From an uncultured Thermoplasmatales archaeon (GTDB lineage: Archaea; Thermoplasmatota; E2; DHVEG-1): a stretch of 64,000 nucleotides of DNA. The translations under genes were made by a program, and so were the position numbers. Below the pieces are notes generated by a model. It made no database searches and was not told the DNA's origin. It worked only from the letters and a program-made list of their open reading frames with translations. Shown in pieces: positions 11,821-48,568 of the stretch (position 1 is its first letter; every line of letters starts with the position of its first letter). The DNA is taken from the NCBI GenBank assembly GCA_964638155.1, contig CAZWYI010000006.1:5949-69948 (forward strand), written 5' to 3'.

Positions 11821-12627
11821 TTATTTTTCACCTCCCACAATTTTTTCTACATTTTCAACAAAATCGATATAGTTTTTTTCGGTATCTTTATTTTTTATAT
11901 CTATTTTTTTTGCGCTATCTCCTATTTCTACTATATCTGGATCAAGTGGAATTGAACCTAAGAATGGTATTTTAAAATCTTCTGCTGCTTTTTTACCTCC
12001 TCCTGTTTTAAAGATATCTACTTTTTTTCCACAGTGAGGACAGGTAAAACCACTCATGTTTTCAACAATTCCTATTACATTTAATTTTAGCTTTTTAACA
12101 AAATTAATTGATTTACGTACACTTACAAGTGCCACGTCCTGAGGGGTTGTTACAATTATCACTCCATCTACATCTGGAAGTAATTGTGCGATACTTAATG
12201 GTTCATCTCCTGTACCCGGTGGTAAATCAATAATTAAATAATCAAGTTCTCCCCAATCAACTTGTCCGAGAAGTTGTCTTATTGCGCCCATCTTCATAGG
12301 CCCGCGCCAAATAACAGGGGAGTCTTTTCCTGGCAGTAAATATCCCATGGACATTATTTTTAGTCCTTCATTTGTTTTGATTGGTTGGATAAGATTATTT
12401 TTCATTATTCCTTTTTCATCTTCCACACCCATTATTTTTGGAATGCTTGGGCCGTGTATGTCGCTGTCAAGTATTCCTGTTTTGTATCCTTTTTTTGCTA
12501 GATACATTGCAAGGTTTGAAGAGATTGTACTCTTTCCTACTCCTCCTTTTCCACTTAGGACTACTATTTTATGTTTTACTTTCTCTAGATTTTTTTTAAC
12601 ATCTATTTCATCTTTCTTTTTTTTCAT
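11821..12627 (-). CDS. apbC: Mrp/NBP35/ApbC family Fe-S cluster carrier ATPase
   Basis: [18 protein letters not shown] deviant Walker A; C-terminal CPHCGKK; 268 aa. Confidence 0.85.
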
Positions 12628-20112: not shown

Positions 20113-20309
20113 ATTAATAAAGAGTAGAAAGTATATTCTCATATCTTTAATATTTTTCTTAAAAAATTACGCAAAATCTTTATATAACAAATTAATAGAG
20201 TTTGGTGAGTCTGCAATATTTTTTTTATATATGTGGATTTAATATTTCGTGAGGAGTAAGGGGTAGGTAAAATCATTAATTTAAGGTTTGAGTGGAGGTA
20301 TTTTTTGTG

Positions 20310-30280: not shown

Positions 30281-30283
30281 TGA

Positions 30284-32701: not shown

Positions 32702-32800
32702 TTGATTAAACATATGGTAGAAAAAACTAACCTGTTTGATATAATAATAACTTGTAATTTTACAATTTTTAAAAATTTTGATTTATGTTTTGTGGGGTAA
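32702..32800 (+). promoter_or_regulatory. possible 32-aa upstream leader ORF (TTG start) ending 5 nt before the frdB ATG
   Basis: An AGGAGG at 32689-32694 is followed 7 nt later by TTG; the ORF reads MIKHMVEKTNLFDIIITCNFTIFKNFDLCFVG, and its stop overlaps the frdB RBS. Confidence 0.25.
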
Positions 32801-32805
32801 ACAAA

Positions 32806-33564
32806 ATGACCAAAACTAAACAGGCCCTTGTTAAAGAATCAAAGAAAAAAAACAAGGAAGAAAAATCAGATGAAGTTGAAGTTTACATAATGGGTAAAAG
32901 CTACAAAGTCCCAGCAGGTCTTACAATAATGAAAGCTCTTGAATATGCTGGTTATCGTTTTATCCGTAGTTGCGGTTGTCGAGCAGGTTTTTGCGGAGCT
33001 TGTTCAACAGTTTATAGAATAGAAGATGAACAAAAACTTGGTTTTGATCTGGCTTGTCAAAAAGTTGTAGAGGATCAAATGTATCTTGTTCAGCTTCCTT
33101 TTGTTCCTGGATTAAAAGCTGAATATGACATTGAAAAAATTGAACCAAGCGATACAACTCTTATAGAAATTTATCCAGAACTTGCTAGATGTGTTTCATG
33201 TAATACCTGTACAAAATCCTGTCCACAAGATATTGAAACTATGAAGTATATTCAAATGGCAGTTAGAGGTGATATCGAACGTTGCGCAGAGTTATCCTTT
33301 GACTGCATTCAATGTGGGTTATGTGCTATGAGATGCCCGGCAGACATTAAACATTATCATTTAGCTCAACTTGCCCGTAGACTACGCGGTAAATATCTTG
33401 ACTCAAAATCAAAAAATCTTGCAAAAAGATTAAAAGAAATTGACCAAAGAAAATACGATGAAGAAATTGCAAAACTAATGAAAATGCAGAAAAAAGAAAT
33501 CATTGATCTCTATAATTCAAGAAAAATAGAAGCAGAACAAGAAGAAGATGAAGGGGGCAGCTAA
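32806..33564 (+). CDS. frdB: succinate dehydrogenase/fumarate reductase iron-sulfur subunit (soluble type: 2Fe-2S + 2x[4Fe-4S])
   Basis: CGCRAGFCGAC (Cx4Cx2C plant-type 2Fe-2S), CVSCNTCTKSCP and CIQCGLCAMRCP. Start taken at the ATG at 32806, after a GGGGT RBS; the track gives 32785. Confidence 0.75.
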   Translation: MTKTKQALVKESKKKNKEEKSDEVEVYIMGKSYKVPAGLTIMKALEYAGYRFIRSCGCRAGFCGACSTVYRIEDEQKLGFDLACQKVVEDQMYLVQLPFVPGLKAEYDIEKIEPSDTTLIEIYPELARCVSCNTCTKSCPQDIETMKYIQMAVRGDIERCAELSFDCIQCGLCAMRCPADIKHYHLAQLARRLRGKYLDSKSKNLAKRLKEIDQRKYDEEIAKLMKMQKKEIIDLYNSRKIEAEQEEDEGGS

Positions 33565-33566: not shown

Positions 33567-35213
33567 TTGACAGATATTGAAGGATATCCAGATTATATGC
33601 TGGAATCTATTAAAAAAGTAGAGGAAAAAAGAGAGCGTAACCTTAAAAAAACTGTAAAACCAATGAGCATGGAAGAAAGAGAGTCGATGCTTAGTAAATA
33701 CCATCCAGATTATATGAAAGGTACTCGCCGTAAATTAAAAGTAGGTATTAATAAAGGAGAAGTTTTTTACAACGGGCTTTCTGATCTTTTAGAGGCTAGA
33801 CCTATTCTTGGTCCTAAGGATGTTGATCTCGATAAAATTGATTATGATGTAGATACCTTAATTATTGGTGGAGGGGGAGCAGGAACAGTTGCAGCACTTT
33901 TTGCTCATGAATCAGGAGTTTCAATTGATAAAATATTGGTTGTTACTAAACTTCGACATGGTGATGCAAATAGTATGATGGCACAAGGCGGCATCCAAGC
34001 AGCTGATCGACCAGAGGATAGTCCAGCACTGCATTATCTTGACATTTATGGAGGAGGACATTTTACCAATAAACCTGAACTTGCACGTGCTCTTGCTCTT
34101 GATGCACCAAGAATCATAAATTGGCATGAAAATCTTGGTGTAATGTATGATCGTCAAGAAGATGGAGAATTCCAAGAGCTCTCCGGGGGCGGAACCTGTC
34201 GCAACCGTATGCATAGTTGCAAAGACTATTCAGGTATGGAAATAATGAGAAACATCCGTGATAGAGCAAGAAACCTTGAAATCCCTGTTCTAGAATTTGC
34301 ACCTATTGCAGAATTAATCATGGATGATAAAGGGCAAGTTGCAGGAGCAGTAGCATTTAATCTTGAAACCCATGAGTATTATGTAATAAGAGCAAAAGCA
34401 ACAATTCTTGCAACAGGCGGTTCTGGTAGACTTCATCTTTCAAATTATCCAACTACAAATCATTATGGTGCAACTGGTGATGGTCTTATAATGGCCTATC
34501 ATGCAGGGGCAAACCTACGTGATCTTGATACAATTCAAATTCATCCAACTGGTGATGCATTTCCAGAACCAATTGTTGGAATTCTATCAACTGAAAAAAT
34601 TCGAGGTCTAGGGGCAAAACCGCTTAATAAAGACGGTGATCCATTTGTATTCCCACTAGAACCACGTGATGTTGAAGCAGCATCTTTTATTCATGAGTGT
34701 AAAGAAGGTCGAGGAATAATAACACCAACAGGAATGCCAGGTGTCTGGCTTGATACACCTATGATAGAAGAAATTCACGGCGAAGGGACTATAGCTACAA
34801 AACTAGCTGGTGAAGTACGCAAATTCAAACGTTTTGGAATTGATATTACAGAACAACCAATTTTAGTTTATCCAACTCTTCACTATCAAAATGGCGGGGT
34901 TGAAATAAATGAAAAATGTGAGACTCGCGTTCCAGGACTCTTTGCCGCAGGAGAAGTAAGCGGAGGAGTACATGGTAAAAACAGACTAATGGGCAATTCA
35001 CTTCTTGATTTTAATGTCTTCGGACGTAGAGCAGGAATTTATGCTGCTAAATATGTTAAAAAAGCAAAAGTTGGAAAGCTCACACTAAGACATCTTGACA
35101 AATATACCAAAATGCTAGAAGAATCAGGAGTTAAACCAAAGAAAACAGCCCCAATATTACTTCCAGATTATCGTGGTGAAATGGCTATTTCTAGATCACT
35201 TGATATTTTATGA
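33567..35213 (+). CDS. frdA: fumarate reductase/succinate dehydrogenase flavoprotein-family subunit (non-covalent FAD type)
   Basis: IIGGGGAGTVAAL (FAD GxGxxG), AQGGIQAA and a C-terminal GLFAAGEVSGGVHGKNRLMGNSLLD. The ~90-aa N-terminal extension makes the start uncertain (TTG at 33567, alternative ATGs at 33598 or 33713). Confidence 0.75.
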   Translation: MTDIEGYPDYMLESIKKVEEKRERNLKKTVKPMSMEERESMLSKYHPDYMKGTRRKLKVGINKGEVFYNGLSDLLEARPILGPKDVDLDKIDYDVDTLIIGGGGAGTVAALFAHESGVSIDKILVVTKLRHGDANSMMAQGGIQAADRPEDSPALHYLDIYGGGHFTNKPELARALALDAPRIINWHENLGVMYDRQEDGEFQELSGGGTCRNRMHSCKDYSGMEIMRNIRDRARNLEIPVLEFAPIAELIMDDKGQVAGAVAFNLETHEYYVIRAKATILATGGSGRLHLSNYPTTNHYGATGDGLIMAYHAGANLRDLDTIQIHPTGDAFPEPIVGILSTEKIRGLGAKPLNKDGDPFVFPLEPRDVEAASFIHECKEGRGIITPTGMPGVWLDTPMIEEIHGEGTIATKLAGEVRKFKRFGIDITEQPILVYPTLHYQNGGVEINEKCETRVPGLFAAGEVSGGVHGKNRLMGNSLLDFNVFGRRAGIYAAKYVKKAKVGKLTLRHLDKYTKMLEESGVKPKKTAPILLPDYRGEMAISRSLDIL

Positions 35214-35479: not shown

Positions 35480-36664
35480 ATGATATATGAGCGAGATCCT
35501 AAGAAAATAAGGGAAATATTGGGAGGAAAAGTCCAATTTTTACTAGGTGATATGGCCTGCGTTTATGGTGGCATACTCGCCGGTGTTTCATTTTTCGGCG
35601 GATATCCTATTACTCCCGCATCAGAGGTCGCCGAAGGAATGGCTAGATTACTACCGCGTGCAGGCGGAACATATATTCAAATGGAAGATGAAATCGGAAG
35701 TATCGCAGCAGTGATAGGCGCAGCATGGGGTGGTGCAAAATCAATGACTGCAACATCTGGACCTGGTTTTTCACTTATGATGGAAAATTATGGATTTGCT
35801 GTAATGACTGAAACACCATGTGTGATAGTAAATGTTCAAAGAACAGGCCCAAGCACAGGTCAGCCAACTCTAGGTGCACAAGGCGATATGATGCAGGCAC
35901 GATATGGAACACATGGAGACTTTGAAGCAATTGCATTTGCACCCAGCACTGTACAGGAATGCCTTGATTTTACAATTGAAGCTTCTAATCTTTCCGAGAA
36001 ATATCGTAATCCAGTTTGTGTTATGGCAGACGGAGAAATTGGACATCTTCGTGAAAGAATTGTAATCCCTGATGAAAAAGATCTTAAACTAATAAATAGA
36101 GTCGAAGCAACAGTTCCAAAAAAGAAATACATTCCTTTTACCAGATCACAAACCCAAAAGAATTCTAAGGTTCCTGATTTTCCAACATTTGGAACAGGAT
36201 ACCGAACATATGTTACAGGCTTAACACATAATGAAAAAGGTTTCCCGGCAACTGATAAACAAAAAGATCATGAAAAACTTGTGAAAAGAATCACCTCTAA
36301 GATTACTGATGATGCTGATAAACTTGTAAAGGTTGAAAAATTAAACCTCGATGACGCAGATATTGCATTTGTAACTTACGGTGCTAGTGCTCGTCCTGCA
36401 GAAACTGCTATGGAAATTGCCCGCTCAAAAGGTAAAAAAGTAGGTTTACTAAGACTTCAAATAGTCTGGCCTTTCCCAGAAAAAGTTATATCAAAACTTG
36501 CAAAACAAGTCGATAAAATAATTGTTCCAGAGATGAATCTAGGCCAAATATATCATCCTATAAAAGAAGCTGCAAGTGGGAACTGTGAAGTAGAAGTAGC
36601 CCCAAAAATAGGCGGTGAGATGCATCTACCATCTGAACTTTTAAAATATCTGGGGGTGAAATAA
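35480..36664 (+). CDS. korA: 2-oxoacid:ferredoxin oxidoreductase alpha subunit
   Basis: 394 aa with the Por/Kor alpha fold signature (GYPITPASEV…); TCA-cycle context suggests 2-oxoglutarate, but this is inferred from neighbours only. Confidence 0.8.
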   Translation: MIYERDPKKIREILGGKVQFLLGDMACVYGGILAGVSFFGGYPITPASEVAEGMARLLPRAGGTYIQMEDEIGSIAAVIGAAWGGAKSMTATSGPGFSLMMENYGFAVMTETPCVIVNVQRTGPSTGQPTLGAQGDMMQARYGTHGDFEAIAFAPSTVQECLDFTIEASNLSEKYRNPVCVMADGEIGHLRERIVIPDEKDLKLINRVEATVPKKKYIPFTRSQTQKNSKVPDFPTFGTGYRTYVTGLTHNEKGFPATDKQKDHEKLVKRITSKITDDADKLVKVEKLNLDDADIAFVTYGASARPAETAMEIARSKGKKVGLLRLQIVWPFPEKVISKLAKQVDKIIVPEMNLGQIYHPIKEAASGNCEVEVAPKIGGEMHLPSELLKYLGVK

Positions 36665-36665
36665 A

Positions 36666-37553
36666 ATGGTAGAAATTAAAACAGCAGATCAATTGAATAA
36701 AAAATATCTCAGAGAGGGAATGTGGCCAACAATTTTTTGTAACGGATGTGGAAATGGAGTAGTACTTGAATATACTTTATGGGCACTTGAGGAACTCGGC
36801 TGGGATATGGATAAAACAGTTTTTGCTTCAGGAATAGGGTGTTCATCTAGAATGCCTGGCTATATAAATGCTGATGCTCTTCATACAACTCATGGACGGG
36901 CAATAGCATTTGCAACCGGAATAAAAGCTGCAAATCCAGATCTTAATGTTGTAATTTTCACAGGAGATGGAGACTGCTCAGGAATAGGTGGTAACCATTT
37001 TATCCATGCAGCTAGAAGAAATATAGATATGACGGTGATTATGATTAATAACTTCATTTATGGTATGACCGGTGGGCAGCTTGCTCCAACTGCACCTTTA
37101 GGAAGCATTGCAACCACAGCACCATATGGAAATATAGAGCCGCCGTTTGATATTTGCAATCTAGCAAAATCACTCGGTGCAAATTATGTAGCAAGATGGT
37201 CTGTTACTCATCCTTATCAGCCTATAAAATCAGTAAAGGCAGCACTAGAGAAAACAGGTTTTTCACTTGTTGAATTTTTAGCCCCATGTCCAACTGCTTA
37301 TGGCCGACGTAATAAGCTAGGAGATATCAAAAAACAATGGGAATGGTATGATAATAACACAATTCTGATTGAAGATTACGAACGAATTATGAACTATGGA
37401 TCTGAAAAAGAAAAAGAAGAAATCAAACACATGTTTCCAGTTGGTGTTTTTCAGGATTTGGAAAAACCAGGATTTTTCGAGCAATACGAAAAACTAGTTG
37501 AAAGACTTGATGGAAAAAAGACTGCTAAATCAAAGAAGGTGATCCACAAATGA
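36666..37553 (+). CDS. korB: 2-oxoacid:ferredoxin oxidoreductase beta subunit (TPP-binding)
   Basis: GDGDCSGIGGNHFIHAARRNIDMTVIMINN (TPP GDG…NN motif) plus Cys ligands; 295 aa. Confidence 0.85.
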   Translation: MVEIKTADQLNKKYLREGMWPTIFCNGCGNGVVLEYTLWALEELGWDMDKTVFASGIGCSSRMPGYINADALHTTHGRAIAFATGIKAANPDLNVVIFTGDGDCSGIGGNHFIHAARRNIDMTVIMINNFIYGMTGGQLAPTAPLGSIATTAPYGNIEPPFDICNLAKSLGANYVARWSVTHPYQPIKSVKAALEKTGFSLVEFLAPCPTAYGRRNKLGDIKKQWEWYDNNTILIEDYERIMNYGSEKEKEEIKHMFPVGVFQDLEKPGFFEQYEKLVERLDGKKTAKSKKVIHK

Positions 37554-38092
37554 AAAAGGAGATACGCATCTGCGGTTTTGGAGGACAGGGCGTTATTCTA
37601 TCAGGCTATATCATTGGAAAAGCAGCATCTGTCTTTATGGATTATAATGCTGTTCAATCTCAATCATATGGCCCTGAAGCACGAGGGGGTGCAGCACGCT
37701 CAGAGGTAATTGTTTCTGACGAAAAAATAGGATATCCAAGACCCATGGGGGTAGATTTACTTGTTGCAATGAGTCAGGAATCATTTGATACATATAGAGA
37801 TGACCTTAACAAAGATACTAAGATTGTTATCGACCCTGATCTTGTTCCAAGACATGACATCGGAACACCAGTTTATAAAATTCAAGCCCAAAAAATCGCA
37901 GAAGAACTTGGCAACAAAATTGTGACAAATATCGTAATGGTTGGTGCATCTACTGCAATCTTTGGACTCTTAGATGAAGATGCTGTAAAAAAATCTGTTA
38001 TGGAAAGCGTTCCGAAAAAATTTATCGATTTAAATGAAAAAGCTTATTTAAAAGGATTAGAGGCAGGAAAAAATGCCCTCAAGAGATTATAA
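37550..38092 (+). CDS. korG: 2-oxoacid:ferredoxin oxidoreductase gamma subunit
   Basis: 180 aa; MKKEIRICGFGGQGVILSGY… typical of the gamma subunit. Confidence 0.8.
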   Translation: MKKEIRICGFGGQGVILSGYIIGKAASVFMDYNAVQSQSYGPEARGGAARSEVIVSDEKIGYPRPMGVDLLVAMSQESFDTYRDDLNKDTKIVIDPDLVPRHDIGTPVYKIQAQKIAEELGNKIVTNIVMVGASTAIFGLLDEDAVKKSVMESVPKKFIDLNEKAYLKGLEAGKNALKRL

Positions 38093-41000
38093 TCAAAAAA
38101 TGGATCATAACCAAGGAATTCCTCTTACTGATGATTACTTTTTAGAAGAACCAGAATTAGCACTATTGAAAGATAAAATGCCAGCTCCTGAGACTACCGT
38201 TAAGGCGTTAGAACAAAGGCTTGCTAAAAAGAAAAAAAGAGTAATCAATGCAGATGTATTAGTTGTTGGTGCAGGTATTTCAGGAATGCAATCTGCACTG
38301 GATATTGCAGATAAAGGCTACAAAGTTGTAATAATTGATAAAACTTCAACTATTGGCGGGGCAATGGTAAAACTTGATAAGACTTTTCCTACAAATGATT
38401 GTAGTATTTGTACAGCGGCACCTAAGATGGTCGAGCTTGCTCGTCACCCAAACGTTGAACTAATCACTTATGCAGAGCTAAATAAATTAGATGGTGAAAA
38501 AGGTGATTTTTCCGCACAAATTTGGAAGAAAACCAAATATGTTGATCCTGATAAGTGTACCGGTTGTGATGACTGTACAGAAGTGTGTCCTGTAGATGTG
38601 GTGAGTAGTTTTAATGAAAAAATTTCAACTCGTAAAGCAATTTATATCGAGTTTCCACAGGCAGTTCCAATAGTCTATACAATTGATCATGAACACTGTA
38701 CCGGATGTGGAGCCTGCGATAGAGTTTGTGAACCAGAGGCAATTAATTTTCTAGAAAAATCCCAAGAAATAGAAGTAAAAGTAGGTGCTGTAGTTGTTGC
38801 TACTGGTTTTGAAGTATTTGAACCAAATGAGATACGTAAAGAATATGGTTATGGAAAATATGATAATGTTATGACTGCAATGCAGTTTGAAAGACTTTTA
38901 TCAAGTTTTGGTCCTACATCAGGAAAAGTACTACGCCCTTCAGATTTAAAGAAACCAAAAAAAATTGGTTGGATACAATGCGTCGGATCACGTAGTGAAC
39001 AAGATGGATATCCCTATTGTTCACGGGTTTGCTGTATGTATGCCACAAAAGAAGCAAGCATTGTAAAAGAATCAAACCCAGATATTGATATTAACATATA
39101 TTATATGGATATTAGAGCCTATGGTAAAGATTTCCAACAATATTATGATCATGCAAAAGACCTTGGTGTAAAATACAAAAGAGGCCGCCCTTCAAATGTT
39201 TATGAAAACAAGGATAAAAGCCTAACTGTAAGATATAAAGATACACTCTCTGGAAAAGTAGAGGAAGACAAAGTTGACTTACTTGTACTTTCCACATCTA
39301 TTATTCCTTCAAAACACAATAAAAAATTAGCAAAAATCCTTGGAATTGAAGTTGATGAAAACGGCTTTTTTAAACAAGATTCGCTTTTGAATAACCCTGT
39401 TCAATCAACTAAAGATGGTATATTTTTAGCAGGGTGTATTCAGGGGCCAAAGGATATTCCAGATAGTGTAAGTATGGCAAGCGGTGCAGCTGCAAAAGCA
39501 GTTTCACCTGTAAAAGATAGAAAAAGACATATCGGCCGTGACTTTCCAGCGGAAAAAGATGTATCTTTAGAAGAACCTAGAATTGGTGTTTTCATATGCC
39601 ATTGCGGTAAAAACATTGCAGGTTATCTTGATGTTGAAAAGCTAACTGAAAAAGTCAAAAAACAAGCAAATGTTGAATATGCAGAACATGTGATGTTTGC
39701 ATGTTCTGAGGATACTTGTAAAAAAATCCGTGAAACAATAAAAGAGAAAAAACTCAATAGAATTGTAGTTGCTGCCTGCTCACCAAGAACTCATGGTGGC
39801 TTGTTTCAGGATACATTACTTGAGGCAGGTTTAAACAAATATCTATTTGAAATGGCAAATATTCGTAACCACTGCAGTTGGGTTCACTCTGATGACTGGG
39901 ATAAGGCAACTGAAAAAGCAATAGGCCTTATTGATGCAGCTATAGCTAAAGTAAGATTACTAGAGCCTCTTAGTGAAGAGGAATTTTCAATTATCCCTAA
40001 AGTACTTGTTATCGGAGGGGGAGTATCAGGGATGAAGGCATCTCTTGCACTAGCTGATATGGGTATTAAATCATATTTAATTGAAAAAGAAAAAGAGCTG
40101 GGCGGGAGACTAAAACACCTACATTCCATGTTTCCATCTGATACCAAAGCAAAAGATATAATTAATCCATTAATTAAGAAAGTCAATAAAAACAAACTTA
40201 TTACTGTAATGAGAGAAGCAACACTTGCAGATATTGATGGTTTTATTGGTAACTACGAAGGCACAATTAAACATAAAGGTAAAAAGAAAAAACTGGAGTT
40301 TGGAACAATAATTGTTTCAACTGGTTTTAAAGAAGTAGACCTTAAAGGGCAGTATCAATATGGAAAAAATAAAAATATTCTTTCTCAAACAGAACTTGAA
40401 GAAAAAATCAAGAAAGGAGAATTAAAGAAGAAACCAAAAAACGTGGTAATGGTAAACTGCGCTGGCGCTATGGATGAAAAAAGACCTTATTGTTGTCGTA
40501 TAGGTTGCGGTGTTGCAATTAAAAATGCAAAGCTTATTTCTGAGAAATATCCTGGTGCAAAGATTTGGTTACTATATAGAGATATGCGTGTTTTTGGAAA
40601 AGAAGAAGAGGAATATTATTCTGATGTATTAGAGAATCAACATGTCACAATGGTTCGTTATCCTAGTGAGAAAAAACCAGAGGTAGTCTTAGACAAAAAA
40701 GATCCAATAGATGGGCCTATAAAAATAAAAGTATATGATGATATTTTAGGTGAAGAACTAACAATAGACTCAGATTTAGTTGTACTTACAGTTAATACTG
40801 AGGGTGAGGTTTTAACTGATACTTTGAAAAATATGCTAAAGATACCTGCAGATGCCGGTGGATTCTTTTTAGAAGCACATGCAAAAATCAGACCTCTTGA
40901 TTTTGCAACTGATGGTATATTCCTATGTGGTGCTGCTCATTTTCCAAAAAATTTAGTTGATTCAATTGCTCAGGCAGAAGGTGCTGCATCTCGGGCGGCA

Positions 41001-41288
41001 ATTCCAATAATGCAGGAGAAAATGAAAGGAGAAGGTCAGGTTGCAGAGGTAAATGAAGACCTCTGCAGTGGATGTAAGACATGTGAATCACTTTGCCCGT
41101 ATTCTGCAATAAGTGTTGAGCCTAAAAAGGATGATCCTGATCATCTTGTTGCAGAAGTAAATCGCGCTCTTTGCAAAGGATGTGGTGCATGTGCCGCTGG
41201 TTGTCCATCTGGTGCTATAGAACAGATGGGATTTAAAACAAAGCAGATACAAGTCATGGTAAATGCTCTTTTAGGGGAGTGTAAATAA
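38073..41288 (+). CDS. hdrA: tandem fusion of two HdrA-like flavoproteins: an N-terminal HdrA/QmoA-like FAD module with an inserted 2x4Fe-4S ferredoxin, plus a complete HdrA (N-domain + FAD + C-terminal ferredoxin)
   Basis: First FAD motif VVGAGISGMQSALD; inserted CTGCDDCTEVCP and CTGCGACDRVCEP. Then the HdrA N-domain PRIGVFICHCGKNIAGYLD. Second FAD motif VIGGGVSGMKASL; C-terminal CSGCKTCESLCP and CKGCGACAAGCP. An alternative start is the ATG at 38100. Confidence 0.8.
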   Translation: MPSRDYNQKMDHNQGIPLTDDYFLEEPELALLKDKMPAPETTVKALEQRLAKKKKRVINADVLVVGAGISGMQSALDIADKGYKVVIIDKTSTIGGAMVKLDKTFPTNDCSICTAAPKMVELARHPNVELITYAELNKLDGEKGDFSAQIWKKTKYVDPDKCTGCDDCTEVCPVDVVSSFNEKISTRKAIYIEFPQAVPIVYTIDHEHCTGCGACDRVCEPEAINFLEKSQEIEVKVGAVVVATGFEVFEPNEIRKEYGYGKYDNVMTAMQFERLLSSFGPTSGKVLRPSDLKKPKKIGWIQCVGSRSEQDGYPYCSRVCCMYATKEASIVKESNPDIDINIYYMDIRAYGKDFQQYYDHAKDLGVKYKRGRPSNVYENKDKSLTVRYKDTLSGKVEEDKVDLLVLSTSIIPSKHNKKLAKILGIEVDENGFFKQDSLLNNPVQSTKDGIFLAGCIQGPKDIPDSVSMASGAAAKAVSPVKDRKRHIGRDFPAEKDVSLEEPRIGVFICHCGKNIAGYLDVEKLTEKVKKQANVEYAEHVMFACSEDTCKKIRETIKEKKLNRIVVAACSPRTHGGLFQDTLLEAGLNKYLFEMANIRNHCSWVHSDDWDKATEKAIGLIDAAIAKVRLLEPLSEEEFSIIPKVLVIGGGVSGMKASLALADMGIKSYLIEKEKELGGRLKHLHSMFPSDTKAKDIINPLIKKVNKNKLITVMREATLADIDGFIGNYEGTIKHKGKKKKLEFGTIIVSTGFKEVDLKGQYQYGKNKNILSQTELEEKIKKGELKKKPKNVVMVNCAGAMDEKRPYCCRIGCGVAIKNAKLISEKYPGAKIWLLYRDMRVFGKEEEEYYSDVLENQHVTMVRYPSEKKPEVVLDKKDPIDGPIKIKVYDDILGEELTIDSDLVVLTVNTEGEVLTDTLKNMLKIPADAGGFFLEAHAKIRPLDFATDGIFLCGAAHFPKNLVDSIAQAEGAASRAAIPIMQEKMKGEGQVAEVNEDLCSGCKTCESLCPYSAISVEPKKDDPDHLVAEVNRALCKGCGACAAGCPSGAIEQMGFKTKQIQVMVNALLGECK

Positions 41289-41290: not shown

Positions 41291-41719
41291 ATGCCAAAGG
41301 AAAAACTACCAAAGAACAAAGAAATAAGTCAGCTAACTTTTAAAAAAGGTGAACTGGCAAGAGAAGTCGAAGAAATCAGTGGTGAAAATCTCTTTGGCTG
41401 TTATCAATGCGGAACATGTTCTGCAGGTTGTCCATATGTTGATGATATGGATCTTACACCAGATGAGGTTATTAGATACATTATACTTGATAGAACGGAG
41501 GTACTAAACTCTAAAACGATTTGGCTTTGCTCAGCATGTTTTACATGCGCTGAACGCTGCCCCCGCAATATCAATATCACAAAAATTATGGAGGCTCTCC
41601 GCCAGATTATTCTTAGAAGAAAAATAGATCATAGTAATGCTCATAAAACAACAAAGAAAGAAAGAGAAAAGATACCGCAAATTGCGTTTGTAAGTTTATT
41701 TAGGAAAAATATTGGCTGA
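41291..41719 (+). CDS. hdrC: heterodisulfide reductase subunit C
   Basis: CYQCGTCSAGCP and CSACFTCAERCP; 142 aa. Confidence 0.85.
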   Translation: MPKEKLPKNKEISQLTFKKGELAREVEEISGENLFGCYQCGTCSAGCPYVDDMDLTPDEVIRYIILDRTEVLNSKTIWLCSACFTCAERCPRNINITKIMEALRQIILRRKIDHSNAHKTTKKEREKIPQIAFVSLFRKNIG

Positions 41720-41724: not shown

Positions 41725-42606
41725 ATGAAATTATTATACTACCCTGGTTGCACACTTAAAACATCTGCAAAAAATCTTGAAAAAACAGCTTTTGCAATAA
41801 TGGATAAACTTGGCCATGAACTAAAGGAGATGGATGATTGGGTATGCTGCGGCGTTGTATCATCACTTTCTGATGATGATTTAATGAGACATCTGGCACC
41901 GCTTCGTTCATTGATTCATGTTGAAGATCAAGGTGAAAAAAAAGTAATTAGTCTCTGTGACATGTGCTGCAACACTCTCAAACAGACTAATCTTAGGGTT
42001 AAGGAAAAACCTGATGATTTTGAAACTCTAAATGATTTTATGGATCAGGAAAATGATTATAAAAAAACAGTTGAGGTCTATCATTTCTTGGAGTTCTTAC
42101 GGGATGATATAGGTTTTGACAAATTGAAAAAAATGGTTAAAAACCCACTTTCTGGTCTAAAAATTATGCCTTATTACGGGTGTATGTTGTTAAGACCAAG
42201 AGAGGTTGCAATTGATGATGCCGAAGATCCAACTATTATGAGCGATCTTTTAAGGGCTCTTGGTGCAGAAGTAGTTGACAATCCATTTAAGATAGAATGT
42301 TGTGGTTCTTATCATACTATAGAAAATAAAGATATTGTTATAAATCGTGCATATCGTATCACAAATTTTGCAATTGAAAGAGATGCCGATGCAATTATGC
42401 TTTCTTGTCCGCTATGCCGTTTTAATTTAGATGAAAGGGGAAAAGAAGCAGAAAAGTTACACAAGGGATACCAACAGATTCCTGTTTATTATTACACACA
42501 ATTGATGGCAATAGCACTGGGAATTGATCCTTCATTATGCGGTTTTGATCAGCATGCTGTTGATCCAAAATTGTTATTGAAAAGAAAAGGGGTTTATGAA
42601 AAATAA
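41725..42606 (+). CDS. hdrB: heterodisulfide reductase subunit B (two CCG domains)
   Basis: YYPGCTLK…, and CCG motifs (VCCG…, ECCGS…); 293 aa. Confidence 0.85.
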   Translation: MKLLYYPGCTLKTSAKNLEKTAFAIMDKLGHELKEMDDWVCCGVVSSLSDDDLMRHLAPLRSLIHVEDQGEKKVISLCDMCCNTLKQTNLRVKEKPDDFETLNDFMDQENDYKKTVEVYHFLEFLRDDIGFDKLKKMVKNPLSGLKIMPYYGCMLLRPREVAIDDAEDPTIMSDLLRALGAEVVDNPFKIECCGSYHTIENKDIVINRAYRITNFAIERDADAIMLSCPLCRFNLDERGKEAEKLHKGYQQIPVYYYTQLMAIALGIDPSLCGFDQHAVDPKLLLKRKGVYEK

Positions 42607-42629
42607 AAAGTTAGGTGGTATTATATATG

Positions 42630-43628
42630 ACTAAAAAAAAGAAAAACAAAGAAAAAAAGAAACTCCAATTAGCATTCTACTGGGCTGCTAGTTGTGGCGG
42701 CTGTGAAATAGCAGTCCTTGATATTGATGAAAAGATTTTAGATGTAATAGAAATAGCTGATATCTTGTTTTGGCCTGTTGCTATGGATTTCAAATATAAA
42801 GATGTTGAAGCTATGAAAGATAACCATATCGATGTATGTTTCTTCAATGGCTCTATTAGAACAGAGGAACAAGAACATATTGCAAAATTACTTCGTAAAA
42901 AATCAAAAGTCCTTGTAGCATTTGGGGCATGTGCTGTAAGTGGCGGGATCCCTGGTCTTGGTAATGTTGCTAACAAAAAAGAAATTTTTGAGGTTGCCTA
43001 CTTAGATAATCCATCCACTGTTAACAAAAAGAAAATAACACCAAAACCAAAAGTGAAAGTAAAAGAAGGGGATCTAACACTCCCTGAATTTTATGATACT
43101 GTAAAAACTCTAGATCAGACAGTTGATGTTGATTACTATTTGCCAGGTTGTCCACCTACTCCTGACATGATTATGACAGCGGTCGAGGCTATAGCAGAAA
43201 ATAAACTACCACCAAAAGGCTCTATCCTTGGGCCATCAAAATCTGTCTGTGATGAATGTCGTTTTGAAAAAACAGAGAAAAAAATCAAGGAAATAAAACG
43301 TGTATATGAGGTCGATAAAATCGAAGATAAATGTCTACTTGAACAAGGAATCATCTGTCTCGGTCCTGCAACACGCGGTGGGTGTGACGCCCGCTGTCTT
43401 GATGCAAATATGCCCTGTACAGGATGCGGTGGGCCTACACCACACTCCATGGATCAAGGTGCAAGTATGATATCAGCAATTGCGTCTATTCTTGGATTAG
43501 AAGGTGAAGAAAAAATGAGTGATGAAGAAGTTCAAAAACTTATCGACCAAGTAATAGATCCAATTGGAACTTTCTATAAATATGGTTTACCTAGTGCCAT
43601 TCTTAATAGGAGGCTTGTTAAAAAATGA
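42630..43628 (+). CDS. mvhG: [NiFe]-hydrogenase small subunit (group 3c, Mvh type)
   Basis: LAFYWAASCGGCEIAVLD proximal-cluster motif and no Tat signal. Start at the ATG at 42630 after an AGGTGG RBS. Confidence 0.85.
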   Translation, partial: TKKKKNKEKKKLQLAFYWAASCGGCEIAVLDIDEKILDVIEIADILFWPVAMDFKYKDVEAMKDNHIDVCFFNGSIRTEEQEHIAKLLRKKSKVLVAFGACAVSGGIPGLGNVANKKEIFEVAYLDNPSTVNKKKITPKPKVKVKEGDLTLPEFYDTVKTLDQTVDVDYYLPGCPPTPDMIMTAVEAIAENKLPPKGSILGPSKSVCDECRFEKTEKKIKEIKRVYEVDKIEDKCLLEQGIICLGPATRGGCDARCLDANMPCTGCGGPTPHSMDQGASMISAIASILGLEGEEKMSDEEVQKLIDQVIDPIGTFYKYGLPSAILNRRLVKK

Positions 43629-45085
43629 AAACTGTAACAATTGATCCCATTACAAGACTTGAGGGACATGGAAAAATAAGTATATTTTTAGATGACATAG
43701 GTGATGTAGCAAATGCCTACCTTCAGATACCTGAACTTAGAGGATTTGAACGATTCAGCGAAGGTAGACGTGCAGAAGATATGCCACAAATCACAAGTAG
43801 AATATGTGGGGTATGTCCGGTTGCTCATCACTTTGCAGCAACAAAAGCACTTGATGATGCTTTTAATGTCACTCCTCCATCTGCAGCAAAAAAACTCCGT
43901 GAATTAATGTACATGGGATATATCATCTATGATCATATTCTGCATTTTTATTATTTAGGGGGGCCTGATTTTGTAGTAGGTCCAGATGCACCTCCATCAA
44001 AAAGAAATATTCTTGGTGTTATAGAAAAAGCAGGTGTTGATATTGGAAAAGAAGTAATAAAACACAGGGCATATGGCCAGAAAATAACAGCAATTCTCGG
44101 TGGAAAGGCAACTCATCCAGTATGTGGTCTTCCTGGTGGTGTATCAAAGGGGCTTAATAAAGATGAAGTAATAGACATTGAAAAAATGACAAAGTCCTGT
44201 GTTGATTTTGCTAAGTTTTCTTTAAAACTTTTTGATGACATAGTTCTACAAAATAAAGATTATGTGGATATGATACTTAGTGACCCATATCAGTTAAAAA
44301 CATATAATATGGGGCTTGTTGATAAGAATAATAAGTTAAATTTTTATGATGGCACAATCCGTGTTACTGATCAAAAAGGAAAGGAATACAAAAAGTTTGA
44401 TGTGAAAGATTATTATAAAAATATTTCAGAACATGTAGAAGAATGGTCCTATATGAAATTCCCTTATCTTAATAGTATAGGCTGGAAGGGATTTAAAGAT
44501 GGAAAAGATAGTGGAATATATCGTGTGGGGCCATTAGGAAGACTTAATGCAGCTGAGGGCATGGCAACTCCTCTAGCAGATAAAGAATACAACAAATTTT
44601 ATGAAACACTTGGTGGAAAAGCAGTCAATAGTACCCTTGCCTTTCACTGGGCTCGGTTAATAGAACTTTTGTATGCAACAGAGAGGGCAACTGAACTTTT
44701 AAAAGACAAGGAACTCACTTCAGAAAAAGTAAAAAATCCAGTTGGAAAACCAGGTGAAGGATTTGGTGTAATAGAAGCTGCCCGTGGTACACTTATTCAT
44801 CATTATAAACTTGATAAAAACGGGCTTATTGATAAAGCAAATTTAATTGTTGCAACTACAAACAATGCAGGTGCAATAAACATGAGCATACGCGATGCAG
44901 CAAAAGGTTTGATAAAAAACGGTAATGTTGATGATGCAACATTAAACATGGTTGAAATGGCATTTCGTGCATATGATCCATGTTTTGCCTGTGCAACGCA
45001 CACTCTACCTGGTGGTATGCCACTTAAAGTTGAAATCTATGATCATAATAAAAAACACATTAAAACATTAAAACAAAATCTATAG
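43625..45085 (+). CDS. mvhA: [NiFe]-hydrogenase large subunit (Mvh type)
   Basis: N-terminal RICGVCPVAHH and C-terminal DPCFACATH Ni-Fe ligand motifs, all Cys with no in-frame TGA; 486 aa. Confidence 0.9.
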   Translation: MKTVTIDPITRLEGHGKISIFLDDIGDVANAYLQIPELRGFERFSEGRRAEDMPQITSRICGVCPVAHHFAATKALDDAFNVTPPSAAKKLRELMYMGYIIYDHILHFYYLGGPDFVVGPDAPPSKRNILGVIEKAGVDIGKEVIKHRAYGQKITAILGGKATHPVCGLPGGVSKGLNKDEVIDIEKMTKSCVDFAKFSLKLFDDIVLQNKDYVDMILSDPYQLKTYNMGLVDKNNKLNFYDGTIRVTDQKGKEYKKFDVKDYYKNISEHVEEWSYMKFPYLNSIGWKGFKDGKDSGIYRVGPLGRLNAAEGMATPLADKEYNKFYETLGGKAVNSTLAFHWARLIELLYATERATELLKDKELTSEKVKNPVGKPGEGFGVIEAARGTLIHHYKLDKNGLIDKANLIVATTNNAGAINMSIRDAAKGLIKNGNVDDATLNMVEMAFRAYDPCFACATHTLPGGMPLKVEIYDHNKKHIKTLKQNL

Positions 45086-45094: not shown

Positions 45095-45565
45095 ATGAAA
45101 ACTATAATATTAGGAGTTGGAAACCAGATTCTAGGTGATGACGGTGTAGGAATACACGTAGTAAAAGAGTTAAAAAAACACCTTCAAAATAATTCAAATG
45201 TCACTATAGATGAGGCGATAACTGGCGGAATGAATCTATTAGACCTACTCCTAGGATATGAAAAAGCAATAATAGTTGATGCTGTAAAATCAGATGATGC
45301 AAAAGAGGGGGAGGTTAAAAGAATTCCTCTCGGTGATTTTAAGACTATGCATTCCTGTAATCCTCATGATGTAAGCTTAACTGAAGCAATTGAAATGGCA
45401 GAAAAATTAGGGGAGAAAAGAATTCCAACAGAAATAGTTGTCATTGGAATAATGATGAAACAAATTCCTTGTGAATTCAAAGAAAACCTCAGTAGTAATA
45501 TTGCTTCTGCTGTTCCAAAAGCTGTAAAAATGACTATCAACGAATTAAAAAATGAAAATAATTAG
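45095..45565 (+). CDS. hydrogenase maturation endopeptidase (HycI/HybD family)
   Basis: IILGVGNQILGDDGVGIHVV; 156 aa. Confidence 0.8.
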   Translation: MKTIILGVGNQILGDDGVGIHVVKELKKHLQNNSNVTIDEAITGGMNLLDLLLGYEKAIIVDAVKSDDAKEGEVKRIPLGDFKTMHSCNPHDVSLTEAIEMAEKLGEKRIPTEIVVIGIMMKQIPCEFKENLSSNIASAVPKAVKMTINELKNENN

Positions 45566-45585: not shown

Positions 45586-46008
45586 ATGGCAAAAAAAGAA
45601 TTTGAACCAAAAATTATTGGGTTTTTATGTAACTGGTGTAGTTATGCTGGAGCAGACTTGGCAGGCACAAGTCGTATGAGATATCCACCAAACATAAAAA
45701 GCATTCGTGTGATGTGCTCAGGCCGTGTGGAACCTGCATTTGTACTTGAAGCATTAAAAAAAGGAGCTGATGGAGTGCTTATTGCTGGATGCCATCCAGG
45801 TGATTGTCATTATCAGTCTGGTAATTACAAAACAAACCGCCGTATTAAACTTCTAAAAAAACTTTTAAAGGATATGGGAGTTGAACCAGAGCGGGTAAGA
45901 TTTGAGTATATATCTGCATCTGAGGGGCAGAAATTTGCAGATACTGTTACTGATTTTGTAAAAGAACTCAAAAAATTAGGGCCAAATCCAATAAAGGTTG
46001 AATTATGA
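45586..46008 (+). CDS. mvhD: methyl-viologen-reducing hydrogenase delta subunit
   Basis: [16 protein letters not shown]…CSGRVEP…GCHPGDCHY (MvhD/FlpD family Cys pattern); 140 aa. Confidence 0.85.
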
Positions 46009-47441
46009 ATAAAAATGTAGATATCGATAAATTAAAAGATATAGTCGGCGAAAATAATGTTAGAGATAATATCGCTGATTTATACGTTTATTCATCTGAT
46101 GCATCAGTTCATAGTAAATTGCCTGATGTAGTTGTAAGACCAGAATCTACAAAACAAGTACAAGAAATTATGCGTTATGCAAATAAAAATAAAATACCAG
46201 TAGTCACAAGAGGTGCCGGTTCAGGAATGAGTGGACAAACAGTTCCACTTGATGGCGGCATCATTCTTGATATTAAAAAAATGGATAAAATAATTGAAAT
46301 CCGCCCTGAAGATGTTATTTGTAAAGTTGAACCGGGGGTTGTAAACGATGAATTAAACCGTGTTTTAAAACCATATGGTTTCTTTTTCCCACCAACACCT
46401 TCCTCCGGTCGTATATGTACAATTGGTGGTATGATAGGAACAAATGCATCAGGAAACCGCTCTGTTAAATATGGTGCAACTCGTGATGCTGTACTTGGAA
46501 TGAAAGTAGTTCTTGCAAATGGAGATTTAGTAACCCTTGGGTCAAACACTAAAGTCGATTCATCAGGGTATCAACTTGCAAGACTTATGGTTGGTTCTGA
46601 AGGAACACTTGGGATTGTTGTTGAGGCAACCCTTCTGATATCACCCACTCCAAAATATCGTGCTATGGGTATTGCAAACTTTAAAACACTTCAAGATGCA
46701 GGAAAAATGATTAGTGATACTATTGCAAATGGTATAACTCCGTCTATGCTTGAACTTATGGATAATGTTGCAATAACTGCAGTAAATAACGCTCAAGATA
46801 TGGATCTTCCTGATGTTGAAGCAATTGTTATTTTTGAATGTAATGGTATGACTAAAGAAACAGTTGATTATGAAATAAATCAATTAAAAAAGATTTGTAA
46901 AAAACATAATGGAAATGGTATTAAAATCACTCATGATGAAAAAGAAATGACAAAAATATACACAGGAAGGAAAAAACTGTTTCCATCTCTATCCAGATAC
47001 AAAGAGGGCCTATATACAACTGCTCTAGCTGATGATATGGCAGTACCTATGAGTAAAATTGCTGATACCATAAATAAAATCCATGAAATAGCAGGTAAAA
47101 ATAAGGTTGTAATGAGTGCATATGGTCACTGTGGTGCAGGTTTAATACACACTAAAATTCTTATGGATACAACTAAGGAATCCCAATGGAAAAATGCAAA
47201 AAATGCAGTAAAAGAAGTATATGATTATGTTCACTCCATTGGTGGTACTACTTCAGGTGAACATGGTATAGGTTTTTCCAAAGGACCTTCTTTTAAAGAA
47301 GAAAAAAAGGACTCACTTGAGATGATGCGTGCAATAAAATATGCACTTGATCCAAATAATATTCTAAATCCAAATAAACTTATGGATTCACCTGACGATT
47401 GGCTTACTGCAACTAAATTACGTTATCGAGTTGAAACATAA
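46005..47441 (+). CDS. FAD-linked oxidase, GlcD/D-lactate dehydrogenase-like
   Basis: 478 aa; FAD-binding PCMH domain with the [10 protein letters not shown] motif and a C-terminal GEHGIG motif; ATGA overlap with the mvhD stop. Confidence 0.75.
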
Positions 47442-47470
47442 AATTAATATAATTGTTTGAGGGAGAAAAT

Positions 47471-48568
47471 TTGGCTACAAAAACTAAAACAAAAAGCAAA
47501 CATCTAAAAGAGTATGAAGAACAGATGAACATGTGCATACGCTGTGCATATTGTTTTGAGAAATGCCCTGTTATTAAAGAAATTAAGTGGGATACAGATG
47601 GTGCACGTGGAAAAGTAATAATGAGCTATGGAATCCTTACTGGAGAATTAGAGCCATCTAAATATATAGCTGATAAACTCTTTAGATGTACATTTTGCAG
47701 AGATTGTATGGAGAGATGCCCATCAAAACTTGAAATACTTGAAATTTTTTCAAATGCTCGTGCAGAATTAGTAGATGCAGGTTTTGCATCTGATACTCAC
47801 AAATATATTATCAAAAACATCAAAAAAACAGGTAACATCTATGGAGATACAGAAGTAATATATCCTGAAAAAAAAGGTAAAACTCCCTTGTTTATAGGAT
47901 GTCAGTATCTAGGCCGTCCTAATAAAACAAAAAAATATATAAAAATTCTTGAAAAACTTGGAATGGAGCCAACAGTTGTAAAAGAAATATGCTGTGGTTT
48001 TCCAATGGACGTACTTGGGTTTAAAAAAGAATATAACAAACATAAAGAAGAATTCAAGGAAAAATTCCCATTTGATAACGCAGTAGCTCTTTGCCCTACT
48101 TGCACAGTTTTTTTAAAAGAGGGATATGAAATAAAAGCAAAACACGTACTAGAATTTATACTTGAAAAATTACCAGAGGTAAATTTAGATATGAAAGTTA
48201 CCTATCATGATCCCTGTGATTTTTCGCGTGGCTTGAAAATAATTGAGGAACCTAGAAAAATTTTAGAAAAACTTGGTGTAGAAATAGTTGAAATGGAAAA
48301 CAATAGAGAAAATAGCAGATGCTGTGGCGGCGGAGGCGGAATTTTGATGACAGATCAAGAATTATCAAATGATATAGCTAAAAAAAGAATCCATGAAGCG
48401 CTTGAAACAGGTGTAGACCTGCTTGTTACAAGTTGTCCTACATGTGAAACAACTCTTAAAAAAGCAGCTCAAGAAATATCTGAATCTGAGGGAAAAACAA
48501 TATCTGTTAGAAATATTGAAGATATAATTTGGAAAGGATTAAGAAAAGCAACAAAGGAGAAAAAATAA
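47471..48568 (+). CDS. Fe-S/CCG-domain protein (GlcF / LldF / HdrD-like)
   Basis: CIRCAYCFEKCP and CTFCRDCMERCP, plus two CCG-type motifs (ICCGFP…, RCCGGGGG). Start uncertain: TTG at 47471 after a GGGAG RBS, the track's TTG at 47453, or the ATG at 47525. Confidence 0.7.
   Translation: MATKTKTKSKHLKEYEEQMNMCIRCAYCFEKCPVIKEIKWDTDGARGKVIMSYGILTGELEPSKYIADKLFRCTFCRDCMERCPSKLEILEIFSNARAELVDAGFASDTHKYIIKNIKKTGNIYGDTEVIYPEKKGKTPLFIGCQYLGRPNKTKKYIKILEKLGMEPTVVKEICCGFPMDVLGFKKEYNKHKEEFKEKFPFDNAVALCPTCTVFLKEGYEIKAKHVLEFILEKLPEVNLDMKVTYHDPCDFSRGLKIIEEPRKILEKLGVEIVEMENNRENSRCCGGGGGILMTDQELSNDIAKKRIHEALETGVDLLVTSCPTCETTLKKAAQEISESEGKTISVRNIEDIIWKGLRKATKEKK

Follow-up and report, generated by a model that had tools for sequence, protein, structure and literature searches.

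A GlcD/GlcF-like gene pair between two Hdr modules of a Thermoplasmatales archaeon: a candidate dehydrogenase for dicarboxylic 2-hydroxyacids

Dehydrogenases that combine a FAD subunit of the vanillyl-alcohol oxidase (VAO) type with a [4Fe-4S]/CCG subunit are known from Escherichia coli GlcDEF and, in fused form, from Dld-II/YdiJ, and gene pairs of the same kind (HdrD/GlcD) have been reported from Bathyarchaeota, Methanomethylicia, Methanomassiliicoccales and Archaeoglobus. The proposals made for these archaeal pairs assume lactate and the heterodisulfide of coenzymes M and B (CoM-S-S-CoB); they report no racemase, GcvH or LplA partners, nor an insertion between two Hdr modules. Here we analysed a glcD-like and a glcF-like gene with such partners and in such a position, on a 64,000-nucleotide stretch of DNA (in the following, the window) from an uncultured Thermoplasmatales archaeon (GenBank assembly GCA_964638155.1, contig CAZWYI010000006.1, positions 5,949 to 69,948). 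Judged from gene content and motifs, chances are about even that the pair, GlcDF, forms a soluble FAD/Fe-S dehydrogenase for a dicarboxylic 2-hydroxyacid, with D-malate as our best guess, that is coupled to bifurcating HdrA complexes.

The locus departs from E. coli GlcDEF in that it is devoid of GlcE, its GlcD is 32% identical, and its context is a cytoplasmic Hdr rather than a quinone one. Among solved structures, LctD (260 bits) of the Acetobacterium woodii Ldh-EtfAB complex (LctBCD, PDB 7qh2) comes closest to the GlcD-like protein; in that complex, a 2-hydroxyacid dehydrogenase sits on a bifurcating module that joins a couple of about -190 mV to ferredoxin and NAD(P)H. A similar arrangement is proposed here, yet with HdrA and GltD-/Flx-like modules in place of EtfAB and with an HdrD-like subunit interposed, so that the resemblance is functional only; LctD itself (34% identity) has Phe and Tyr in the pocket where Tyr and Lys are found here. 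With MvhAGD-HdrABC and FlxABCD-HdrABC, the locus shares all subunit types including the MvhD connector, and two related loci (L016/L017) have Flx-like modules, but there is an extra dehydrogenase pair at the MvhD junction, and HdrA2 contains a GltD-like insert.

Both the building blocks and the "GlcD/HdrD" concept in general are known already. On the other hand, the searchable literature, including work on Hdr-GlcD genes of Marine Benthic Group D (MBG-D)/Thermoprofundales and on Methanococcoides LarA, yielded no description of this cluster or of its GlcD clade, of its placement at the MvhD junction with an Hdr module on either side, or of its conserved partnership, in archaea as well as bacteria, with a malate-racemase-type LarA homologue, a GcvH-like protein and a lipoate ligase.

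The gene pair and its tie to Hdr modules

The original prediction, made from the letters alone, had recognised a GlcD-type 2-hydroxyacid dehydrogenase followed by an HdrD/GlcF-type Fe-S/CCG protein, and domain searches bear this out.

46005-47441, plus strand: glcD-like gene, FAD-dependent D-2-hydroxyacid dehydrogenase, 478 aa, assigned by Pfam domains
47471-48568, plus strand: glcF-like gene, HdrD/GlcF-like Fe-S protein, 365 aa (open reading frame, ORF, listed from 47453)

The first product matches FAD_binding_4 (1.7e-47) and FAD-oxidase_C (1.2e-58), the second the Fer4_8 dicluster domain and two CCG domains (2.3e-26). The ATG of glcD overlaps the stop codon of mvhD by 4 nt (ATGA, 46005-46008), as it does in the orthologous loci L002, L011, L016 and L017, which implies translational coupling. 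This overlap had been noted correctly, but the accompanying description of the pair as "fused" to mvhD was wrong, as these are two separate overlapping genes without protein fusion. The start of glcF is likely TTG at 47471, because it is preceded by GAGGGAG and the same start was called on an independent contig and assembly, and its stop overlaps the lplA start (TAATG, 48566-48570). Both genes are part of a co-directional run (35480-55711) with overlaps or tiny gaps between the genes, in the order korABC-hdrA1-hdrC1-hdrB1-mvhG-mvhA-protease-mvhD-glcD-glcF-lplA-hdrC2-hdrB2-hdrA2::gltD.

35480-38092, plus strand: KorABC, 2-oxoacid:ferredoxin oxidoreductase (family models)
38073-41288, plus strand: HdrA1, 1071 aa (domain and family models)
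41291-41719, plus strand: HdrC1
41725-42606, plus strand: HdrB1
42615-43628, plus strand: MvhG
43625-45085, plus strand: MvhA
45095-45565, plus strand: hydrogenase maturation protease
45586-46008, plus strand: MvhD, [2Fe-2S] electron-transfer subunit (FlpD, 1.6e-58)
48568-49617, plus strand: lipoate-protein ligase, LplA catalytic and C-terminal domains (domain and family models)
49618-50106, plus strand: HdrC2 (TIGR03290, 129 bits, below the equivalog cut-off)
50103-50984, plus strand: HdrB2 (TIGR03288, 288 bits, below the equivalog cut-off)
50981-55711, plus strand: HdrA2 with an inserted GltD/NfnB-like NAD(P)H-binding Fe-S flavoprotein module, 1576 aa

HdrA1C1B1, MvhG, MvhA and MvhD make up a complete MvhAGD-HdrABC set in one operon. 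HdrA2 reaches 1070 bits with its family model, and the inserted module (residues ~154-650) 534 bits with the NAD(P)-binding model NF009410 (cut-off 516). This insert is ~500 aa long, and related metagenome-assembled genomes (MAGs; L002, L006, L010, L018) add MvhD2 and an FrhB-like protein downstream, neither of which is present in the window. No EtfA/EtfB genes were found in the window.

Homologues of the GlcD-like protein with 66-91% identity all come from MAGs of Thermoplasmatota or "Thermoplasmata archaeon" (e.g. M8B2D, M11B2D), which assigns the window to an MBG-D-like sediment archaeon, and across these MBG-D-type MAGs the order MvhD-GlcD-GlcF-(LplA)-HdrC2-HdrB2-HdrA2::GltD is kept; the gene order of the operon as a whole recurs in about 15 related MAGs. 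Among genome-derived MBG-D-type loci, MvhD precedes GlcD in 16 of 17, GlcF follows GlcD in 13 of the 15 that extend downstream of it, and LplA separates GlcF from HdrC2 in 10 of the 13 having GlcF. The link to Hdr/Mvh drawn in the original prediction is hence conserved, but the Mvh hydrogenase is not the persistent partner: in L014, the unit GlcD-GlcF-LplA-HdrC2-HdrB2-HdrA2::GltD-MvhD stands alone without Mvh hydrogenase or HdrA1, with GcvH divergent from GlcD, which points to the second, NAD(P)H-type Hdr module as the lasting companion (see also L016/L017 and L123). In a sister lineage, represented by L016 (2742-3752) and L017 (7937-8947), GlcF is replaced by two ferredoxin dicluster domains (four clusters) fused to an MvhD domain, followed by MvhD, FrhB-like, Fer4_22 and FlxA-like NAD/FAD proteins and HdrA; such a variant would be expected of a GlcD that passes its electrons along an Fe-S wire to HdrA. 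Besides, the Hdr association recurs in bacteria with different gene orders, namely GcvH-LarAH-GlcD-GlcF-LplA-HdrC-HdrB-HdrA-MvhD in a Calditrichota locus (L123) and HdrC-HdrB-FAD protein-HdrA::MvhD-x-x-LarAH-GcvH-GlcD-GlcF in another bacterial one (L129), where LarAH denotes the LarA homologue.

All 18 cysteines of the GlcF-like protein fall into two CxxCxxCxxxCP motifs (22/25/28/32 and 73/76/79/83), whose eight cysteines suit two [4Fe-4S] clusters, and two complete C...CCG...CxxC motifs (144, 174-175, 208/211 and 249, 284-285, 322/325). In alignments it is collinear with HdrC plus HdrB, an HdrD-type architecture with every HdrC/HdrB cysteine kept, whereas E. coli GlcF is without two of the CCG-motif cysteines retained here. 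The protein is predicted to be soluble: it has no transmembrane or hydrophobic segment (maximum hydropathy 0.75), and no membrane protein that could correspond to HdrE, the cytochrome b partner of HdrDE-type enzymes, adjoins glcF. Its best family match is the C-terminal Fe-S/CCG part of the thiol:fumarate reductase subunit TfrB (169 bits). TfrAB of methanogens is built in a similar way, from a flavoprotein for a C4 di-acid and a CCG module for a thiol/disulfide couple, but its flavoprotein is of the Frd/Sdh rather than the VAO type. The window also encodes a TfrB/SdhB-like Fe-S subunit (32785-33564, 259 aa) that is without the CCG half of methanogen TfrB, exactly the half that the GlcF-like protein matches best.

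Substrate pocket, racemase type and metabolic neighbours

The catalytic set of the family (His/His/Glu metal ligands, catalytic His, carboxylate-binding Arg) is intact in the GlcD-like protein, in which Arg322, His375, His382, Glu420 and His421 align with LctD R328, H377, H384, E422 and H423; Tyr373 and Lys384 complete its key residues. It scores below every NCBIfam equivalog cut-off (TIGR00387, 397.6 vs 567.9 bits; NF008408, 293 vs 897), and no GlcE-like gene is present in the operon. The second-nearest PDB entry after LctD is a glycolate oxidase (245 bits). Orthology to alkyl-dihydroxyacetone phosphate synthase or to vanillyl-alcohol/cresol oxidase was rejected, with at most 107 bits vs 260 for LctD. 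Together with its relatives, the protein falls in a distinct "Y-G-H...H-T-K" clade, which stands on its own beside YdiJ in a neighbour-joining tree; this tree is crude, was built without Dld-II, DVU3027 and AF0394, and uses PDB reference sequences rebuilt from alignments. The H-T-K clade includes homologues from Methanomassiliicoccales and Thermoplasmata (L019, L021-L023, L030) as well as 829-aa fused GlcD::GlcF versions, and homologues are labelled "glycolate oxidase" in source annotations.

Two clade residues hint at the substrate. Every clade member has Lys384, which stands two residues downstream of the second metal His, while the position is taken by Ile407 in LDHD, Tyr386 in LctD, Asn443 in D2HGDH, Arg in E. 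coli YdiJ and Leu in GlcD and the glycolate oxidase. Tyr373, two positions before the first metal His, corresponds to D2HGDH Tyr432, a ligand of the distal carboxylate. In lactate and glycolate enzymes this side-chain pocket (subsite B) is hydrophobic, as it is in the lactate-specific LDHD and LctD, which is why LDHD rejects di-acids; the D-lactate-type pocket (LDHD V101, W351, S365, I407) is not matched here, with Lys384 at the I407 position and Tyr373 at that of D2HGDH Y432. Of the distal-carboxylate residues of human-type D2HGDH, Tyr432 is kept, and Lys401, Asn443 and Thr390 are replaced by Ala, Lys and Phe, respectively.

The LarA lactate racemase announced in the original prediction is a real ORF, but of the malate-racemase type.

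61012-62268, minus strand: LarAH, LarA-superfamily Ni-pincer 2-hydroxyacid racemase, malate-racemase type (Lar_N, 6e-58; LarA_C, 1e-15)

Its catalytic residues H99 and H166 (LarA His108/His174) and its nickel-pincer nucleotide (NPN)-binding residues R69, K176 and H192 (LarA Arg75/Lys184/His200) are kept, and larBCE for NPN biosynthesis were sought but not found in the 64-kb window. The published selectivity rule (PMC11770544) assigns F,F,W,E/Q to lactate racemases, x,x,H/Q,K to malate racemases and Y,F,H/Q,T to 2-hydroxyglutarate racemases. Window LarAH has Y167, F168, H346 and K347 (Y,F,H,K), of which H346/K347, at the positions of LarA1 W358/T359, agree with the malate racemase (MAR, LarAH5/6) rule, as in Mar2. 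Malate racemase Mar2 (LarAH6, PDB 6d6z) is also the best solved relative (218 bits vs 189 and 160 for two lactate racemases); it has the H,K selectivity and all catalytic and NPN-binding residues in common with window LarAH but differs in the first two selectivity residues (Y,K vs Y,F), and the activity of LarAH is a predicted one. The best NCBIfam model is that of the LarAH6 malate racemase family, below its cut-off.

The proposed link between racemase and dehydrogenase is real, because LarAH orthologues adjoin GlcD-GlcF orthologues elsewhere: they lie directly upstream, with the same signature and 49-60% identity, in 12 genome loci (11 Methanosarcinales-type, one Zixibacteria), and seven further contigs also bring all three together; besides Methanosarcinales, several bacterial phyla are represented. 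The Y,F,H,K signature is found in all 19 of these GlcDF-linked homologues. Genes around the triad encode citrate synthase, an aconitase-type dehydratase and isocitrate dehydrogenase (ICDH) in Zixibacteria (L033), SucCD, fumarase and aconitase in L125, malic enzyme and aconitase in L127, and two Mdh/Ldh-family proteins (upstream) in L131. Malic enzyme, COG0277 and COG0247 are likewise among the neighbours of the Mar2 group (Desguin 2020, Table S1). In the window itself, Kor and the following neighbours are in line with di-acids.

29414-31390, minus strand: succinyl-CoA synthetase alpha and beta (SucCD)
32785-33564, plus strand: fumarate reductase/succinate dehydrogenase-like Fe-S subunit
33567-35213, plus strand: fumarate reductase/succinate dehydrogenase-like flavoprotein subunit
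55724-56263, minus strand: class I fumarate hydratase beta (C4-dicarboxylate context)
56266-57135, minus strand: class I fumarate hydratase alpha (C4-dicarboxylate context)

Because of the LarAH signature and Mar2 match, GlcD Tyr373 and Lys384, and these neighbours from the tricarboxylic acid (TCA) cycle and malate metabolism in the window and at other loci, we infer that a dicarboxylic D-2-hydroxyacid is a likelier substrate than lactate, with D-malate ahead of D-2-hydroxyglutarate.

Two side observations concern the surroundings of larAH. Of 80 metagenome loci, 47 have a GlpA-like flavoprotein gene (62359-63819 in the window; DAO and BFD [2Fe-2S] domains) in divergent orientation to larAH. 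A GlpB-like gene (~410 aa) comes next, and many loci continue with a third HdrC-HdrB-HdrA set; examples of this neighbourhood are L048, L058, L065, L070, L083 and L118. The order seems to recall the E. coli glpABC layout and suggests another dehydrogenase-Hdr module; with its BFD domain and these followers, the gene was dropped as a GlpA/LhgO-like, L-specific partner of the racemase. In L125 (9674-10295) and L127 (13529-14165), DUF3842 and CooT genes stand beside the GcvH-LarAH-GlcD::GlcF module. CooT is a nickel-binding protein, and its presence could relate to the Ni-pincer cofactor.

Possible lipoyl carrier, proposed electron path and rival readings

The original prediction had overlooked the lipoate-protein ligase gene listed above and a gene for a GcvH-like protein.

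57866-58300, plus strand: GcvH-family lipoyl carrier, 144 aa (GcvH model, 135.6 bits, cut-off 117)

Its lipoyl-Lys70 lies in an unusual K-W-x-G-K motif, for which E. coli GcvH has K-A-A-S-D, and there is no gcvT or gcvP near the gene. Homologues (51-78% identity) stand beside LarAH-GlcD(F) in L123, L125, L127 and L129 and beside GlcD in L014, and in L074/L075 GcvH directly follows HdrA2::GltD (LplA-HdrC2-HdrB2-HdrA2-GcvH). LplA is found after GlcF in Calditrichota L123 too. The carrier and the ligase recur with the module in archaea and bacteria, but neither GcvH nor LplA was found in the 11 Methanosarcinales-type loci, whose organisms have CoM-S-S-CoB, and L016/L017, which are without the CCG domain, are also without lplA. 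This distribution, the location of the ligase gene within the operon and the completeness of the CCG motifs together suggest that lipoyl-GcvH may be a dithiol/disulfide handled by GlcF and HdrB. Related ideas have been put forward for the sulfur-oxidation system sHdr-LbpA (Cao et al. 2018, PMC6067878), whose Hdr-like genes are accompanied by a lipoate-binding protein resembling GcvH and by a lipoate ligase of their own; for Culexarchaeia, such an idea has been raised speculatively (PMC9723716). Unlike sHdr-LbpA, the present locus has a hydrogenase, GlcD and LarAH and belongs to an anaerobic sediment archaeon, and no sulfur transferases (DsrE, TusA, rhodanese) were found among window ORFs of 80-120 aa or longer. 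Two OsmC-family peroxiredoxin-like genes lie at 57348-57788, directly upstream of gcvH, and at 4340-4768, and an OsmC-GcvH pair occurs again in L117. OsmC/Ohr enzymes are lipoyl-dependent peroxidases, and an antioxidant role of the lipoyl carrier is an alternative reading.

In the mechanism we favour, LarAH would interconvert L-malate and D-malate, and GlcDF would work reversibly, also as a 2-oxoacid reductase. Electrons would pass from the substrate to the GlcD FAD by metal-assisted hydride transfer, on to the two GlcF [4Fe-4S] clusters and the GlcF CCG clusters, and from there into the flanking HdrA complexes, with the NAD(P)H-linked HdrC2B2-HdrA2::GltD as the main and the MvhAGD-HdrA1B1C1 hydrogenase complex as the secondary partner, possibly with coupling via lipoyl-GcvH. 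Standard potentials are about -170 mV for oxaloacetate/malate, -190 mV for pyruvate/lactate, -140 mV for CoM-S-S-CoB and -290 mV for lipoamide, compared to -320 mV for NAD(P)H, -414 mV for H2 and about -450 to -500 mV for ferredoxin. With these values, an oxoacid/hydroxyacid couple can replace the heterodisulfide as the high-potential partner in HdrA bifurcation, and the couple at hand (about -170 to -190 mV) would take the role of methanogen CoM-S-S-CoB in a reversible reaction, 2-hydroxyacid + reduced ferredoxin <-> 2-oxoacid + 2 NAD(P)H (or 2 H2). When NAD(P)H takes the mid-potential place, this reaction lies close to equilibrium, like that of Ldh-EtfAB; when H2 does so, the direction of H2 oxidation is favoured, except where H2 is kept very low. 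In one direction, malate would be oxidised together with reduced ferredoxin from Kor; in the other, oxaloacetate would be reduced, yielding reduced ferredoxin for Kor-dependent 2-oxoglutarate synthesis.

Several observations weigh against this scheme and feed its rivals. Window larAH lies 12.4 kb from glcDF on the other strand, and its constant neighbour in MBG-D metagenome loci is the GlpA-like flavoprotein, not GlcDF. LarAH remains below the cut-offs for both malate (NF052593, 380 vs 500) and lactate (NF033504, 299 vs 460) racemases and shares three of its four signature residues with 2-hydroxyglutarate racemases, and all characterised enzymes compared (E. coli GlcD, YdiJ, LctD, the solved glycolate oxidase, mouse LDHD, 3pm9) are similarly far from the GlcD clade, at 28-34% identity. 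The original prediction had favoured lactate: GlcDF would be a D-lactate dehydrogenase, LarA would feed in L-lactate, and lactate plus Kor-reduced ferredoxin would drive H2 production via Mvh-Hdr. The kinship with LctD of the confurcating Ldh-EtfAB, a fitting pyruvate/lactate potential, the HdrD/GlcD "lactate" pairs widely proposed in archaeal MAG papers and the two Ldh/Mdh-family genes of L131 speak for it, but LarAH has H,K instead of the lactate-racemase F,F,W,E/Q, subsite B carries Tyr and Lys where LDHD and LctD are hydrophobic, the enzyme contexts are those of TCA and malate metabolism, and no lactate permease occurs in any locus examined; we consider lactate quite improbable. D-2-hydroxyglutarate, although still unlikely, fares somewhat better. 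In that case, GlcDF would be a D-2-hydroxyglutarate dehydrogenase/2-oxoglutarate reductase working with Kor, which would give succinyl-CoA and reduced ferredoxin, and both electron pairs would be confurcated. A Kor at the operon head would suit this substrate, as would the Y,F,H of LarAH, the ICDH of the Zixibacteria cluster, nearby genes for a glutaryl-CoA-dehydrogenase-like acyl-CoA dehydrogenase and succinate-semialdehyde dehydrogenase, the tree position, and a cationic residue two after the second His that parallels the Arg of YdiJ, the E. coli D2HG dehydrogenase. However, Kor passes only the generic 2-oxoacid oxidoreductase model and no 2-oxoglutarate-specific one, and therefore failed as proof; the fourth LarAH signature residue is Lys (malate) and not Thr, Ala replaces D2HGDH Lys401, and malic enzyme, fumarase and citrate synthase neighbours indicate C4 acids.

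The remaining rivals concern the tie to HdrA rather than the substrate. It is possible, though doubtful, that GlcDF is not hard-wired to HdrA but engages in HdrD-type exchange with a dithiol/disulfide carrier shared by HdrB, namely CoM-S-S-CoB in Methanosarcinales and lipoyl-GcvH in the present archaeon. Like HdrB, GlcF has two complete CCG motifs, its best match is the thiol-oxidising part of TfrB, lplA lies inside the operon, GcvH-like genes adjoin LarAH-GlcDF (L123, L125, L127, L129) or the module (L014, L074, L075), the absences in the Methanosarcinales-type loci and L016/L017 fit, and sHdr-LbpA and Culexarchaeia provide precedents or prior suggestions. Then again, lipoamide would be a poor acceptor for malate or lactate oxidation, albeit no worse than NAD+; no GcvH lies near LarAH-GlcDF in L033, L126, L130 and L131, LplA is absent from 3 of 13 MBG-D loci, and both proteins could be ordinary lipoate or glycine-cleavage housekeeping. 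A broader version of this idea is put forward tentatively: GcvH-like/LarAH/GlcD/GlcF(/LplA/HdrCBA/MvhD) may be a system conserved in two domains of life, in which lipoyl would serve as the "heterodisulfide" for the CCG clusters of GlcF and HdrB, and bifurcation would be coupled to an NAD-independent interconversion of malate and oxaloacetate that runs through D-malate from the Ni-pincer enzyme. Lastly, GlcDF might be an ordinary catabolic oxidase of the glycolate/D-lactate type, co-transcribed by chance and without a tie to Hdr/Mvh. The "glycolate oxidase" labels of homologues would agree with this, as would L124 and L132, stand-alone GlcD-GlcF pairs of the clade with no Hdr nearby. Yet the mvhD overlap and the position between Hdr modules are kept over the 66-91% identity range, the Hdr association is independent in bacteria with different orders, an MvhD-fusion variant exists, neither GlcE nor a membrane or quinone partner is present, and scores fall below GlcD equivalog cut-offs, all of which makes a chance arrangement highly improbable.

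Remaining window genes and biological meaning

Further away from the pair, the window contains the following regulator gene.

31410-32498, minus strand: TrmB-like regulator

The operon surroundings additionally include genes for OsmC, succinate-semialdehyde dehydrogenase and an acyl-CoA dehydrogenase with similarity to glutaryl-CoA dehydrogenase. At 20292-29225, where GC content is raised and GC skew strongly positive, a giant protein of 2977 aa is encoded that consists mostly of FG-GAP repeats (14 stretches matched). A possible metallocluster assembly set at 8223-12627 comprises two ferredoxin-domain MinD/ParA-like ATPases, an ARMT1-like protein, two Nitro_FeMo-Co (NifX-like) domain proteins and an Mrp/NBP35-type ATPase. 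A tRNA scan of the window found no tRNA.

Bifurcating complexes of the Hdr/Mvh type occur widely among anaerobes other than methanogens, abundant sediment archaea included. For such complexes, the present locus offers two candidate high-potential substrates, i.e. an oxoacid/hydroxyacid couple reached via a dedicated dehydrogenase and a lipoylated GcvH-like carrier. Besides, it places the largest group of Ni-pincer racemases in a putative physiological context, the redox chemistry of TCA-type di-acids, and it corrects the routine annotation of a large protein clade as "glycolate oxidase" or "lactate dehydrogenase". If the proposed role of the carrier is true, lipoyl-GcvH would be the long-sought "heterodisulfide" of Hdr complexes in organisms that lack coenzymes M and B.

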